Origin: Nitrospira sp.
GTDB lineage: Bacteria; UBA9089; CG2-30-40-21; SBAY01
Assembly (NCBI GenBank): GCA_005239945.1
Contig: SBAY01000102.1
Coordinates: 1 to 37,742, forward strand
Length of the DNA: 37,742 nucleotides
Direction: 5' to 3'
Part shown: positions 13,700 to 31,259 of the stretch, in pieces
How the letters are laid out: each line of letters opens with the position of its first letter
Position numbering within the stretch: the stretch's first letter is position 1
Notes under the pieces: generated by a model
What the model was told of the DNA's origin: nothing
Seen by the model: the letters and a program-made list of their open reading frames with translations, nothing else
The model's database searches: none
Position numbers and translations under genes: made by a program

Positions 13700-14917
13700 C
13701 TATTTCTCCTCCTCTTTAATCACTATCCTTGCCTTGTCCTTTAGCTCTAAGGGAGGGTTCAGGACAACCTCCTCACCCTCATTTACACCGGATAAAACCT
13801 CAACCTCATTGGGATTTCTAAATCCTGAGGTAATCTCTCTTTTACTGACAATATTATCCTTGATGACAAAGACATAGTCCTTCCCTTCGATATTGACTAA
13901 TGCCTCCTGGGAAATCTTGGTAACATCCTTCTTTAAGCCTGAAACAATAACCACATCGCAAAGCATCTCACTCCTGATGTCAATATTTGTTGGCTCAAGC
14001 TGCATGGTCACCTCAAAGGTATTTATCTTTTCTATCAGCCTTGGAGATGGAGCTATCTTTTCTACCTTTGCGGAAATCACCCTACCTGAAAAGGCATCAG
14101 GAATCACAGAAACAGACATACCTAAGGATATTTTGCTAATATCCACCTCATCTAAGTTCACCCTGGCCACAAATTCTTTACCTGAGACAACTACTGAAAG
14201 TAATTGTCCCTGGTTGACCCAACTGCCCTCTTTTATCTCTTTTTGGGTAACAATGCCACAGATGGGTGAGGTGATTTTAGACCAGCAAATCTGCTGTTCT
14301 ATTGATATTAGATTTTTGTCTATGGCTTTAATAGAGGAGACGACGGATTCTGTCTCCTCACGGTGAGCATTAAGTCTTTCTTTGAGTTGTGTCCTGATAA
14401 TCTCAAGTTGTAACCTTGTTTTATCGTAATCTGCGGTTATTCTTTTTAGTTCGTCCAGGGAGATAACCTTGCCCTCAAACAAATTCTTCTTTGCCTCAAA
14501 TTGTCTTTCTGCCTCTCTAAAAAGGACTTCTGCCTCCTGCACCCGGTCTTCTAACTCCTTAATATCAAGCCCTCGCTCAAGCTTGATAAGATTATTTTTA
14601 TAATTGACTAATTTTGCCTCTTCCTGGTGTTTTCTTGCCAAAAGTTCTTTGTCGTCCAGACAAGCAACAATCTCACCCTTTTTCACAGGGGTTCCCTCTT
14701 CGAGGATAAACATTATTACCCCGGGAATCTTTGCCTTAAGTTCGAATCTATCCCTTGCCTCAATTTTCCCCCTGGCAGAGACCTTAAGACTAAGCTCTCC
14801 TCTGGTTACCTCACCCTTTACTACAGCAATCTTCTTTCCATCTTTTCCCCTGACCAGAAAGAAGACCACGCCTCCGATAACAGTCAAAATCACCAGGAGT
14901 ATTATCCATTTCTTTAT
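13700..14917 (-). CDS. Efflux periplasmic adaptor (MacA/HlyD-type membrane fusion protein)
   Basis: N-terminal TM, lipoyl half motifs (EEG.PVKKG.IV, I.SPI.G.V), coiled coil, DEVDI.KI..G; best-placed start behind AGGAG is ATA at 14917. Confidence 0.85.
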   Translation of the reverse strand: MKKWIILLVILTVIGGVVFFLVRGKDGKKIAVVKGEVTRGELSLKVSARGKIEARDRFELKAKIPGVIMFILEEGTPVKKGEIVACLDDKELLARKHQEEAKLVNYKNNLIKLERGLDIKELEDRVQEAEVLFREAERQFEAKKNLFEGKVISLDELKRITADYDKTRLQLEIIRTQLKERLNAHREETESVVSSIKAIDKNLISIEQQICWSKITSPICGIVTQKEIKEGSWVNQGQLLSVVVSGKEFVARVNLDEVDISKISLGMSVSVIPDAFSGRVISAKVEKIAPSPRLIEKINTFEVTMQLEPTNIDIRSEMLCDVVIVSGLKKDVTKISQEALVNIEGKDYVFVIKDNIVSKREITSGFRNPNEVEVLSGVNEGEEVVLNPPLELKDKARIVIKEEEK

Positions 14918-14934
14918 TTTAGTCTCCTTTTTTT

Positions 14935-15589
14935 AAAGAATAGGTCATATAGGACTTATAGGACTTATTCTTTCTCTTCCCTTTCTTCGCGATTGATAAA
15001 GCCTTTCCGTGAATCCACCTTCTTCTAAAAATTGTTTTTCTAATTGCCGCAATAACTGGTCAAGCAAATAATTTGCCTGATGAATCAGGCAGATAAGAAC
15101 ATTTGCAGCTACTTCAAGCGAGCTTTGTTCGATATAGGTCTTATAAGTCTTATATGACCTATTCTTCTCCCATGCAAGATTTCTGATTGCTTGAGCCTGT
15201 GGGTGAGATTTATCCCAGAGTATCAATCCTTGCTGTCGCAGAATGTCTTCGTAATCCGCCAGTAGTTCCTCAAGACTTGCACGAGCCACACCCATCAGTT
15301 TTAGCTCGGTTTTCTTTGATGTACCTGATGCCATGCTGCCTTCAGCAATATTTTGTTTGCCACTACGCGATGCCTGTACCATTTGATCATGAGTGCGAGA
15401 ACGCTTGTCAATAAAACGATTACAGAATACCACCGTAGCATCATAAATAATTTCTGTAGTCTGATAAGATTTCAGGTTGCGGTATCCACCATGTGGGGTA
15501 ATCAAGTTTGGTTTTTCATTCATTGTTTTTTTCCTTTATATGTCCTATGGGTCTTATATGACCTATAGGACATATATGACCTATTCTTT
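14935..15589. mobile_element. Four-helix-bundle gene cassette bounded by 17-bp inverted repeats built from 9-mer TATAGGAC(T/A)/TATAGGTCA units
   Basis: AAAGAATAGGTCATATA (14935-14951) and TATATGACCTATTCTTT (15573-15589) are exact reverse complements; mobility is inferred. Confidence 0.65.
14945..15523 (-). CDS. Four helix bundle protein with suffix domain (23S rRNA IVP-like family)
   Basis: HGGYRNL.SY, RTHDQMVQASRSGKQNIAEGS, ARASLEELL.DYED, C-terminal FLEEGGFTERLY. Confidence 0.88.
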   Translation of the reverse strand: MNEKPNLITPHGGYRNLKSYQTTEIIYDATVVFCNRFIDKRSRTHDQMVQASRSGKQNIAEGSMASGTSKKTELKLMGVARASLEELLADYEDILRQQGLILWDKSHPQAQAIRNLAWEKNRSYKTYKTYIEQSSLEVAANVLICLIHQANYLLDQLLRQLEKQFLEEGGFTERLYQSRRKGRERISPISPI

Positions 15590-16860
15590 TCCCCAAATTC
15601 ATTCTGCATAGTTCATAGTCAATCATAGCCTCAATCTGCATGGTAGAAGAACGAATAAATGTCTCCTCTGCCTCTTTTACCTCTGAGATGGTGGCTAACC
15701 CAAGTTCATATCTTTTCTTTGTTATCCGCAATATCTCATTTCCTAATCCCTTGTTTTTTTCAGAAACCTTTACCCGCTCTTCTGCCTCCCGTAATCCGGC
15801 AATAATCTCCTTTGTCTCCAATATAATTTTATCCTTAAGACTATGGCAATTTTCTTCTGCCGTTTTATAATTCAACTCTGTCTGTTTCACCTTAGATGCT
15901 GTGTAAAAGCCGTTGAAGAATGGAATCTCGATACCTAATCCCTATTCTCCACGACTCTTCCGACACATCATCAAGGCTCTTTTTGAATCCATCCTTATTC
16001 TCACCACTCCAGTTGTAACCTCCAATCAAATTAACCTTTGGAAAGTAATCTGCCCTGATTATCCTAATCTGCAATTCCTTACTCGTTGTCTCTGCCTCCC
16101 TGGCGGCAACCTCTGGATTATTTGTTATTGCCTCGCTGACTATTTTTTCTTCATCCACATCTATCGGCATAAAGGTCGGCTCATCCTTGATAGCTATTTC
16201 CCCCTCTATTTTCAACAGGCTTCCAAGATTATCCCTTGCCACCTTTTCCCGGCAGGATGCCCTGATTAACTCCTCTTTGGCACAAGCCAGATTTACCTCC
16301 TGCTTCATCATCTCTACCTCTGGAATAAAACCCTCTTTGTATTTAGCCAGGGTAATCTCCATAATCGAGTCGGCATACTCTACCCTTTTCTGGCAAGCCT
16401 TTTTTAATTCGATAGCTTTTTTAAGATTCCAGTAAGAGGCTATGATTTTGTAGGTAACCTCATTCTTTACCTGCTCTATTTTCAATAAAGCAATCTTTAT
16501 TTCCTCCCTGGCATACTTAATGGCATTGCTTACCTTCCCACCTGTCCATAGAATCTGATTCAGGGAAAGGGATAGATTATTATGGTATCCTTCAATAGAT
16601 TCAGGCGATTTTATCTCTTCCCAATTATTGTAAGAAGAACTGATATTACCGGTTATCTGCGGATATACCTGAGACAATGTTTCCTTTAAAGATGCCTTTG
16701 TAATCTCAAACTGCAGATTAGCTACCTTCAATTCCCGGCTATTAGCTAACCCTATCCTGATTGCTTCTTGCAGGGTAAGATTATGAACAGACTCAGCATA
16801 AGAGGCTTCATGGATAATAAGGAAAGAGATCAGGCATAAACTTAAAATTTTACTACTCAT
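15516..16860 (-). pseudogene. TolC-family outer-membrane efflux protein split by a +1 frameshift at about 15940-15942
   Basis: Signal peptide, LTLQEAI..L.N, YP.I, L.Q.LW.GG, FPKVNL; removing one G joins WRIG to LGIEIPFFNGFYTASKVKQ and ORF 15516-15890 (RYELGLAT..EV..AE). Confidence 0.85.
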
Positions 16861-18037: not shown

Positions 18038-18050
18038 CTAATTCTCTTAA

Positions 18051-18089
18051 AAAGAATAAGTCTTATCTGACCTATAAGACCTATTCTTT
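18051..18089. repeat. Empty copy of the 9-mer TATAGGAC hairpin family
   Basis: AAAGAATAAGTCTTAT...ATAAGACCTATTCTTT; near-identical termini to 14935-15589; supplies TAG of the ABC ATPase. Confidence 0.85.
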
Positions 18090-18761
18090 AATAATTCCCC
18101 CATCCTTCATCCTGATAATCCGTTGGGTATAGCCAGCAATATCTGCTTCATAGGTAACCAGAATTATGGTTCTACCCTTCTTGTTCAAACCACGCAATAT
18201 CTCCATTATCTCATGACTTGTCTGGCTGTCAAGGTTTCCTGTGGGCTCATCGGCACAGATAATCTCAGGGTTATTAACTAATGCCCTGGCAATAGCCACC
18301 CTCTGCTGTTCTCCGCCAGACATCTCCGATGGTTTATTCCGTAGTTTAGTGGAAAGACCTACCCTCTCAAGTGCCTCAGTAGTTATTCTCTTCCTGTTTT
18401 TCCTTAAAGTAGTGCAGGAGTATAATAAGGGTAACAGCACATTATCCATGGCACTCTGTCTTCCCAAAAGATTAAATGACTGAAAGATGAAACCAATCCT
18501 TTTATTTCTTATTCTGGTTAACTCTTTATCGCTATTTTTACCTATATCCTCTCCATCCAATAGATAGGTGCCGGATGTAGGACTATCAAGACAGCCGATG
18601 ATATTCATCAAGGTAGATTTTCCACTGCCAGAGGGCCCCATGATGGCTATGAACTCACCCCTATCAATGGATAGAGAGATTCCCTTCAAGGCAGGAAAGC
18701 CTGTCTTGCCCATAGGATAAACCTTTGTTATCTCCGTAAGCTTAATAAAATCAGGATTCAT
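18081..18761 (-). CDS. MacB/LolD-type ABC transporter ATP-binding protein (H-loop His replaced by Tyr)
   Basis: GPSGSGKST, MSGGEQQRVAIARAL, ADEPTGNLD, VTYE; RBS GAGGA favours ATG 18761. Confidence 0.92.
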   Translation of the reverse strand: MNPDFIKLTEITKVYPMGKTGFPALKGISLSIDRGEFIAIMGPSGSGKSTLMNIIGCLDSPTSGTYLLDGEDIGKNSDKELTRIRNKRIGFIFQSFNLLGRQSAMDNVLLPLLYSCTTLRKNRKRITTEALERVGLSTKLRNKPSEMSGGEQQRVAIARALVNNPEIICADEPTGNLDSQTSHEIMEILRGLNKKGRTIILVTYEADIAGYTQRIIRMKDGGIIKE

Positions 18762-22344: not shown

Positions 22345-22386
22345 TTATAGGACTTATAACTCTTATAGAACATATAAGTCCTATAA
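22345..22386. repeat. Empty 9-mer TATAGGACT hairpin
   Basis: TTATAGGACTTATA ... TATAAGTCCTATAA perfect 14-bp stem between mreD and mrdA. Confidence 0.85.
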
Positions 22387-31120: not shown

Positions 31121-31259
31121 GCCATCAGTTATCAGATTACGATTACAATTTTGGATTTTGGATTTTCGATTTTGGATTAAAGATATTAAGATTCCTCAAT
31201 CCAAAATCGAAAATCCAAAATCCAAAATTTCATTTGGTATTAACTGATAACTAAGGCAT
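31098..31259. repeat. Nested hairpin: outer CAGTTAT family, inner TTTTGGA/AAAATCC family (31148-31229)
   Basis: ATGCCTCAGTTA...TAACTAAGGCAT enclosing four TTTTGGA-type units and four AAAATCC-type units; loop resembles that of 20445-20513. Confidence 0.88.

Follow-up and report, generated by a model that had tools for sequence, protein, structure and literature searches.

We analyzed a 37,742-nt stretch of contig SBAY01000102.1 from a Nitrospira sp. genome assembly (GCA_005239945.1), hereafter the window, in which a gene of the S23p/four-helix-bundle family lies within a macAB-tolC-type efflux operon between two inverted arrays of a short tandem repeat. Gene and arrays together (14935-15589, minus strand) very probably represent an inserted unit, a cassette co-directional with its host operon. 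The interpretation we favor, and consider probable, is an intervening sequence (IVS)-like, transposase-free cassette whose arrays are pairing arms and whose gene occupies the loop. The S23p family has been without a known function since its discovery in rRNA intervening sequences. This family is very large, and the results give it concrete, testable biology, since gene and arms move jointly into operons, including cas and restriction operons.

Cassette and solo hairpins in the window

The cassette contains a single gene encoding a 192-aa four-helix-bundle protein (14945..15523, minus strand), referred to below as the suffix gene, and is situated between the tolC-type gene and the hlyD-type adaptor gene. 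Its ends are exact inverted repeats of 17 bp (14935-14951 is the reverse complement of 15573-15589) that extend inward to 34 nt at 85% complementarity. The location of the gene, the exact termini, and their extension by 9-mers had been described in an initial annotation of the window and were confirmed by the sequence. A third array, in frame within the gene at 15134-15166, was overlooked there. The repeat unit is approximately TATAGGWCC, with a 9-mer lattice AT-NN-GWC-NN. It is a near-palindrome, identical to its reverse complement apart from the central W, and therefore any two arrays are able to pair in either orientation. The 5' arm (15537..15589, minus strand) is a 9-mer array ending in the 17-bp terminus and located 13 nt upstream of the start codon; its local RNA fold has an energy of -22.4 kcal/mol (z -5.3). 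The 3' arm (14935..14973, minus strand) is a complete palindromic 9-mer element that overlaps the stop codon of the suffix gene, with the hlyD ribosome-binding site coming next, and belongs to the same 37-nt class as the solo site 18052-18088. Both arms are partly translated: the tolC reading frame enters the 5' arm and gains the tail RIGHICPIGHIRPIGHI, and the final ~9 residues of the suffix protein are read from the 3' array, homologues stopping ~7-10 residues sooner.

The suffix protein passed the cut-offs of TIGR04258 (77.1 bits, cut-off 40, residues 137-183) and TIGR02436 (30.9 bits, cut-off 24) and scored below the gathering cut-off of PF05635 (23S_rRNA_IVP; 28.8 vs 33.8 bits, E 1.5e-6). 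The PF05635 match covers profile positions 8-74 of 106, the domain being interrupted by the internal array, and a precomputed table lists PF05635 for nearly all homologues of the protein. The structure modelled by AlphaFold2 (AF2) was all-helical with a mean pLDDT of 79.9. The best fold probabilities in a Foldseek search with this model, in which all E-values were >0.1, were those of 2gsc_B (0.99, TM 0.64 on target) and 2rld_C (0.97), both members of the S23p family.

Inspection of related genomes showed that the site is polymorphic for insertion. In G009, a relative from the same order, hlyD and tolC are adjacent, with neither the gene nor a hairpin between them; absence from orthologous efflux operons was a check proposed in the initial annotation. 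The tolC-hlyD junction of G007 and G008 carries a hairpin of a different 9-mer, which in G008 (CGCAGATTA) lies beside a YhcG/DUF1016 gene. Suffix-gene orthologues from the same family occur at other loci, namely after a different gene in G003 (86% amino acid identity) and before a third gene in G004 and G005 (72%), and arrays are present beside the orthologues of G003-G005. Contigs obtained from three DNA runs, two of them probably from the source sample, contained the assembled form and other array copies, and none joined across the cassette. As a separate observation, a gene of the YhcG/DUF1016 family, a PD-(D/E)XK nuclease, was located at the tolC-hlyD junction in loci L084 and L085 (G008:C424, G014:C11). 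The idea that the element brings its own ribosome-binding site, hinted at by the hlyD junction, was dropped since at the flgG-type site described below the ribosome-binding site is host sequence present in both filled and empty alleles.

Two solo hairpins of the TATAGGWCC family, not assigned to a strand, were identified in the window, as the initial annotation had reported. One (18051..18089) lies between the macB-type ATPase and permease genes and folds as RNA at -16.8 kcal/mol (z -4.0). The other (22345..22386), which lacks the AAAGAATA terminus, is located just upstream of a ribosome-binding site and folds at -17.8 kcal/mol (z -5.0). The distance from the ATPase stop to the permease start is 2-4 nt in G009 and G008 and 58 nt in the window, so that the first hairpin is an insertion in its own right, spanning ~18038-18095. 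A 6-nt direct repeat can be read at this insertion and is not general elsewhere. The initial annotation regarded such solo hairpins as scars or non-autonomous relatives of the gene-bearing element; rather than as scars, they behave as insertions themselves.

The abundance of the repeat is far above expectation. Two tandem units (<=3 mismatches) occurred 13 times in the window vs 0.13 expected, and the terminus (<=1 mismatch) 6 times vs 0.41; no shuffle reached either count. Since the units are degenerate, strict lag-9 self-similarity found only 24 arrays, and the lattice pattern was used instead; all thresholds were self-chosen, and each was paired with a control. The 2.94-Mb genome contained 127 loose TATAGGWCC loci and 87 perfect matches to three lattice units, grouped in 49 clusters, compared to 0 in each of 3 shuffles. 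Among the loose loci 75 were intergenic and 18 overlapped gene ends, while random placements gave 15% and 4%, respectively. Elements with both termini were of discrete size (12 of 37 nt, 5 of 46 nt, and single ones of 47, 40, and 28 nt). Many solo arrays are positioned immediately upstream of ribosome-binding sites, and some are in frame within ordinary open reading frames (ORFs), where they are translated as YRTYRTYRSYKSYKSY, KNMSYKTYKTYI, and similar peptides.

These properties are also consistent with an independent repeat family, similar to repetitive extragenic palindromic (REP) sequences or miniature inverted-repeat transposable elements (MITEs), that colonizes intercistronic junctions, the gene residing in junction-rich hot spots and its adjacency to the repeats being incidental. 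Besides the intergenic bias, the discrete sizes of 37 and 46 nt, and the lone insertion at 18038-18095, this explanation could draw on ordinary genes that are sometimes bracketed by arrays, for example, on contigs C285 and C186, on the array-rich genome G009 lacking a full-length suffix gene, and on the junction of relatives that hosts a YhcG/DUF1016 gene and a different 9-mer hairpin. The evidence on the other side comes from paralogues and homologues and is given in the next section.

The host operon reads on the minus strand in the order macB-type ATPase (18785-18081, at the upstream end), permease (18037-16853), tolC-type outer-membrane gene (15516..16860), 192-aa ORF, and hlyD-type adaptor gene (13700..14893, with HlyD_3 and HlyD_D23 domains). 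The tolC-type gene, upstream of the cassette, is split into two frames, and PF02321 was detected in both pieces. A single frame change is located near 15930 (window 15890-15960, minus strand), after residues WRIG; in a relative, this gene is one 458-aa ORF, and the change may reflect pseudogenization, an error of assembly, or programmed frameshifting. Downstream of the cassette, at 14893-14935, the hlyD-type ORF has no ATG at the start position of the relative, and the listed start is a GTG further inside.

Several other repeats were noted in the genome. Arrays of the 9-mer lie in frame deep within long ORFs (G000:C277:4025-4082, C115:12335-12360, C361:3708-3746, and C98:3423-3466) and encode Tyr-rich or Ile-Gly-rich peptides, one of which, KNMSYKTYKTYI, is nearly identical to the suffix-gene motif. 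For annotation, tails or in-frame inserts of the type (Y-K/R-T)n or (I-G-H/P)n in such genomes are to be read as a warning of repeat elements translated as protein. Three 37-nt elements (G000:C277:9793-9829, C65:2408-2444, and C77:5391-5427) are placed at the tip of a longer palindrome, GGGGTTCGGG ... CCCGAACCCC, and look like one repeat family nested inside another. A repeat of ~135 nt (L143 1000-1135; G000:C130:1200-1335) has >20 copies with 85-99% identity on other contigs of the genome.

Repeat arms of paralogues and homologues

None of the ten other PF05635 matches in the genome has a TATAGGWCC array nearby. All nine canonical paralogues inspected have a tandem array upstream and an inverted array downstream, each with a private unit of 7, 9, or 14 nt. 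A flank-to-flank inverted score of >=17.5 was reached by 8 of the 10 testable PF05635 genes vs 22 of 2,270 other ORFs, in line with the enrichment predicted by the initial annotation. The two genes under this value were C365 and the C68 paralogue, and C374 was excluded as being too close to the contig end. At 30 PF05635 loci in five genomes of other phyla, the score was >=17.5 for 9 and >=14 for 14, compared to 0/30 in the reversed-sequence control; several of the misses were pseudogenes or ORF miscalls.

The expectation that each protein clade is paired with its own repeat unit held wherever it could be tested (C68, L074, a 47%-identical variant, and C62). The C68 paralogue carries the 9-mer unit of its linker at its upstream end, and in L074 the linker and the flank have a common unit. 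The suffix variant with 47% identity, which comes from another phylum, has a fourth 9-mer on each side. Three suffix-clade loci have an (S-D-x)n linker of a different unit, and one of them also has that unit upstream. The C68 gene itself (G000:C68:6224-6982) encodes a 252-aa protein with the same N-terminal domain and suffix, and in its linker a third 9-mer forms an in-frame hairpin that is read as GQNGRNGRNGQHGQSTMSIPSTKSTSSIPST. Arms are enriched around these genes, and their units are specific to gene lineages. Bracketing by inverted arrays with an own unit for each gene lineage is, on present counts, likely to be a rule for the whole 23S_rRNA_IVP/TIGR02436 family. In full-text literature, with subscription journals and supplements outside the search, inverted tandem arrays were not found described for members outside rRNA, and this habit of the four-helix-bundle gene family is apparently undescribed.

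The arms travel with the gene to new loci. The C62 cassette precedes a flgG-like gene and has copies with related units elsewhere in G003 and G008 (79-84% nucleotide identity). Its orthologous site in G001, a member of the same genus, and in G003 is occupied by solo hairpins that are built from two unrelated heptamers and have loops of 35-60 nt. Six pairs of cassettes had arm similarity >=18. In three of them, the protein score ratios were 0.70, 0.57, and 0.39 vs a median of 0.10, and two of these three pairs cross orders or phyla. The remaining three all involve L120, with a protein ratio of ~0.05; we think that the L120 ORF is a miscall.

Heptamer arrays were numerous in the genome (308, of 80 unit types). 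In the commonest family, with 78 arrays, (GGATTTT)n precedes (AAAATCC)n; the arms frequently measure 34 nt and the loop 17 nt, and one copy is located in the window at 31146-31230. Three geneless composites (G000:C24:2790-3095, C156:40-375, and C335:2270-2525) have outer inverted ends, AGACTAA arrays, and a common palindromic core of 105-133 nt; the AGACTAA composites use the unit of the C382 cassette arms. Simple deletion from a gene-bearing cassette was rejected as the origin of these "empty" hairpins, because their cores are homologous to each other and not to the four-helix-bundle gene. The complete chromosome G048 contains 24 PF05635 matches (L103, L108, L118, L122, L125, and others), many with internal stops, and several of these loci have common CCTTGAACCC-type heptamer arrays, which looks like a burst followed by decay.

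Homologues of the suffix subfamily number at least 8,000, and the best 120 of them, 76-100% identical, come from metagenome-assembled genomes (MAGs) labelled with many phyla; MAG assemblies break at repeats. For locus analysis, the best 80 of 574 confirmed stretches from a scan of species genomes were taken. The gene is embedded in operons: of 72 loci, 38 had both neighbors in the same direction as the gene, and the median gaps were 64 and 34 nt. The downstream neighbors scanned (n = 62) included 10 Cas4, 4 Cas1, 4 HsdR, 2 HsdS, and 1 DNA methylase, the others being diverse. Presence in cas loci adjoining cas4 was already reported in PMC3936711. A flank was considered positive if it contained three lattice units with >=13/15 strong positions. 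By this measure, the upstream flank was positive in 15 and the downstream flank in 22 of 77 loci, either flank in 32, and both in 5, compared to 4 of 1,069 random windows and 2 of 291 other gene junctions in the same loci.

This last contrast, 19% and 29% beside the gene vs 2/291 at other junctions, is difficult to reconcile with incidental adjacency of a REP- or MITE-like family. Moreover, the dispersed unit coincides with the conserved internal motif of the gene in unrelated phyla, every paralogue has matched arms of a private unit, and cassettes with related arms recur at different loci. An independent repeat family is therefore unlikely, and the arms most likely belong to the gene.

An alternative role for the arrays is that of operators or binding sites of a four-helix-bundle regulator, with the flanking and internal arrays serving autoregulation, the dispersed arrays making up a regulon, and nothing mobile as a unit. 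The copy numbers are suitable, as the suffix gene is present in 1-3 copies per genome and arrays number up to 269. Five genomes selected for a flanked gene had 269, 60, 15, 8, and 1 perfect lattice matches, and five selected for an unflanked gene had 0-2, at the gene's own locus where listed; both sets are illustrative only. The unit is palindromic and periodic, like multimer binding sites, solo arrays are often located directly before ribosome-binding sites, and the internal site is conserved even in genomes without other arrays. Avd, described in PMC10053308 as homologous to PF05635, likewise acts with nucleic acid. A regulator leaves unexplained the presence or absence of gene and arms at orthologous sites and the private units of ~10 paralogues in one genome, and some genomes in which no such gene was detected retain arrays. 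We regard it as distinctly unlikely.

The in-frame internal array

The third array of the cassette (15134..15166, minus strand) lies in frame within the suffix gene, encodes KNRSYKTYKTY, and is 91% complementary over 33 nt to positions 14936-14968 of the 3' arm. The motif RSYxTYxTY is invariant in the homologue alignment and is modelled by AF2 as a helix (residues 124-133) that connects helices 3 and 4 of the bundle and has its Tyr residues spaced as i, i+3, and i+6. Invariance and helical geometry are what a purely proteinaceous Tyr-rich motif, resembling the flanks by chance, would offer in its favor.

Codon usage contradicts this explanation. An alignment of 74 coding sequences, taken from loci with 37-69% G+C, showed AGG for the motif Arg in 61 of 66 cases, compared to 0-17 of 61-74 at other conserved Arg columns. 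The motif Tyr columns were TAT in 67/69 and 68/70 (26-41 of 60-69 at other Tyr columns), and TAT was kept even at loci of 60-69% G+C. The same constraint was evident where the protein is variable: the residue x1 is represented by at least 9 amino acids and has G as the third base in 71 of 74 sequences (background third-base G, 0.32), the N/D column ends in T in 69 of 73, and a column varying between T, S, P, and A ends in C in 60 of 74. Thus, bases are fixed where amino acids vary, and amino acids vary where the lattice allows, which indicates selection on the nucleic acid. The internal array is conserved at the nucleotide level across phyla and selected as nucleic acid, and we find a motif maintained for the protein only to be hardly credible.

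The internal lattice site was positive in 71 of 75 homologue loci and was kept even in genomes without any other array. Birth of the suffix gene by read-through fusion at the 3' arm was also considered and rejected, since bundle helix 4 follows the array.

Proposed mechanism and comparison with known systems

In the minimum-energy fold of the 721-nt transcript of the cassette, the 3' arm is joined to the internal array (z -4.39), and the resulting stem encloses the region coding for the suffix domain. For the C382 cassette, the predicted fold has both arms paired around the ORF (z -4.67). On the IVS-like reading, gene and arms would spread horizontally as a single insertion unit and land between cistrons, with the arms moving together with the gene between loci and between phyla. 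Arrays in the operon transcript could then pair, looping out the ORF so that host cistrons would be separated and not disrupted, and RNase III would cut the paired arms. In the suffix subfamily (TIGR04258), a third array has become fixed in frame between helices 3 and 4, where it now encodes the invariant Tyr-rich helix; the copy in the window is predicted to pair with the 3' arm. The solo TATAGGWCC hairpins represent small insertions of the same repeat family, multiplying in some genomes. Pairing and processing of the operon transcript are suggested by the architecture shared with ORF-bearing 23S rRNA IVSs; by this analogy, we give them close to even chances. In Coxiella, according to PMC4990558, the IVS carries an S23p ORF preceded by three tandem heptamers, the number of which varies among strains, and is excised by RNase III with the 5' cut at the first heptamer repeat; earlier proposals of IVS mobility are also cited there.

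A number of results weigh against the IVS-like cassette. Regarding RNA, the 5' arm of the 721-nt transcript forms a local hairpin and no simple outer stem is present; in the C130 cassette, the arms pair in the minimum-energy fold and not in the centroid (z -2.66, 1 of 20 shuffles equal), and the sign of polarity is modest, with a purine-rich sense strand in the 5' arms of 16 of 21 cassettes. Regarding the link between gene and arms, no lattice array was found on either flank in 45 of 77 homologue loci, so the arms are unnecessary for persistence of the gene. Conversely, G009 has 67 lattice matches and no full-length suffix gene, i.e., arrays thrive without it. Co-occurrence of gene and repeats within the phylum is weak (among 25 genomes, 8 have both, 2 the gene only, 6 the repeats only, and 9 neither). 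Arm and protein similarity were uncorrelated over 496 cassette pairs (Spearman 0.06, p 0.21), their link being visible solely among the few most arm-similar pairs, and the genome contains no four-helix-bundle gene cognate to the commonest family of heptamer hairpins. Regarding mobility, no recombinase was found in the cassette, no target-site duplication is general to the 19 elements inspected, and the contigs of the two Y1 transposase (PF01797) genes of the genome, C213 and C35, contain no 9-mer array. Finally, gene calling relied on a crude longest-ORF rule, and the compared genomes are related to each other and not independent. A Y1 transposase (REP-associated tyrosine transposase, RAYT) as the mobilizer was rejected, since neither of the two genes is linked to the 9-mer.

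Taken together, the interpretation given in the initial annotation is partly supported. Of its proposal of an IVS-like, transposase-free mobile unit, insertion and movement of the arms with the gene stood, while the proposed pairing of the outer flanks was not recovered in the minimum-energy fold for the window, which joins the internal array with the 3' arm. Its view of solo hairpins as dependents of a cognate gene is at variance with the commonest heptamer family. Two findings had been named that would speak against the reading, a gene stably present without flanking repeats in relatives and a lack of enrichment around paralogues, and neither refuted it.

It is possible, on tentative grounds, that the four-helix-bundle protein acts on its own arrays. 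More speculatively, and rather doubtfully, S23p/Avd-like proteins might be dedicated partners of a very large unrecognized class of tandem-repeat hairpin elements. Each lineage would then recognize its own arm unit, perhaps with one ring subunit per unit, the protein would promote the spread or upkeep of arrays, as RAYTs do for REPINs, and the coding array of the suffix subfamily would be a cis site. If so, rRNA IVSs, siting in cas and restriction operons, and heptamer and nonamer intergenic repeats would be faces of one system. The findings in any case join three loose ends: where rRNA IVSs come from, why genes of this family are present at defense loci, and how short tandem repeats between genes arose.

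Among known systems, integron gene cassettes differ in being arrayed, whereas the cassettes described here are scattered in operons. Short tandemly repeated repetitive (STRR) sequences of cyanobacteria are short intergenic tandem heptamers of many unit types. They resemble the 308 arrays of 80 units in this genome, and no link between STRR and four-helix-bundle genes was found in the full-text literature within the limits of the search given above. Rickettsia palindromic elements are palindromic repeats inserted in frame into protein-coding genes and read as peptide. Arrays of this genome are likewise read in frame, both in other ORFs and in the tails of the tolC and suffix genes; the 9-mer arrays are unrelated, much shorter, composed of tandem units, and tied to a specific gene family.

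With MITEs, the 9-mer elements share terminal inverted repeats with palindromic ends, discrete sizes of 37 and 46 nt, many copies, and presence or absence at orthologous sites; they differ by the lack of a consistent target-site duplication and of an identified cognate transposase. In REP/REPIN-RAYT systems, short palindromic repeats flank a Y1 transposase gene of one or few copies and also occur between genes in tens to hundreds of copies, and the repeat type differs between gene lineages. A few-copy gene flanked by dispersed palindromic repeats whose type varies with the gene lineage was also found here. Unlike in those systems, the gene encodes a four-helix bundle without a known nuclease motif, the two Y1 genes are not flanked by the 9-mer, and some genomes hold the repeats without the gene.

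Avd of diversity-generating retroelements has a homologous fold and belongs to the same family according to PMC10053308, in which PF05635 is the family most common beside the reverse transcriptases of these elements. The suffix protein has an extra suffix domain and no reverse transcriptase nearby. On this basis, the gene could be imagined as an Avd-type accessory gene, with the repeats as template and variable repeats. The three RVT_1 matches of the genome are located on C231, C192, and C124, none of which carries a four-helix-bundle gene, the neighbors in the window are efflux genes, and the arrays are short tandem units and not a template/variable pair. With no reverse transcriptase near any four-helix-bundle paralogue of the genome, this origin was rejected as extremely improbable.

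The closest counterpart is the ORF-bearing IVS of 23S rRNA, known from Leptospira, Coxiella, and others. The cassette differs from it in its host, a protein-coding operon with insertion between tolC-type and hlyD-type genes and not in a helix of 23S rRNA, and in the arms of its family, which are long 7-, 9-, or 14-mer arrays, the unit being specific to the lineage. The genome studied here also contains dispersed solo arrays, and the suffix subfamily has a third, coding array. Processing has been demonstrated for IVSs and is predicted here from sequence. What both have in common is a member of the same gene family in the loop of a stem formed by the ends of the element (here complementary over 17 bp exactly and over 34 nt at 85%, enclosing the ORF), co-directional insertion in a transcribed host unit, and a sporadic distribution that suggests horizontal spread.

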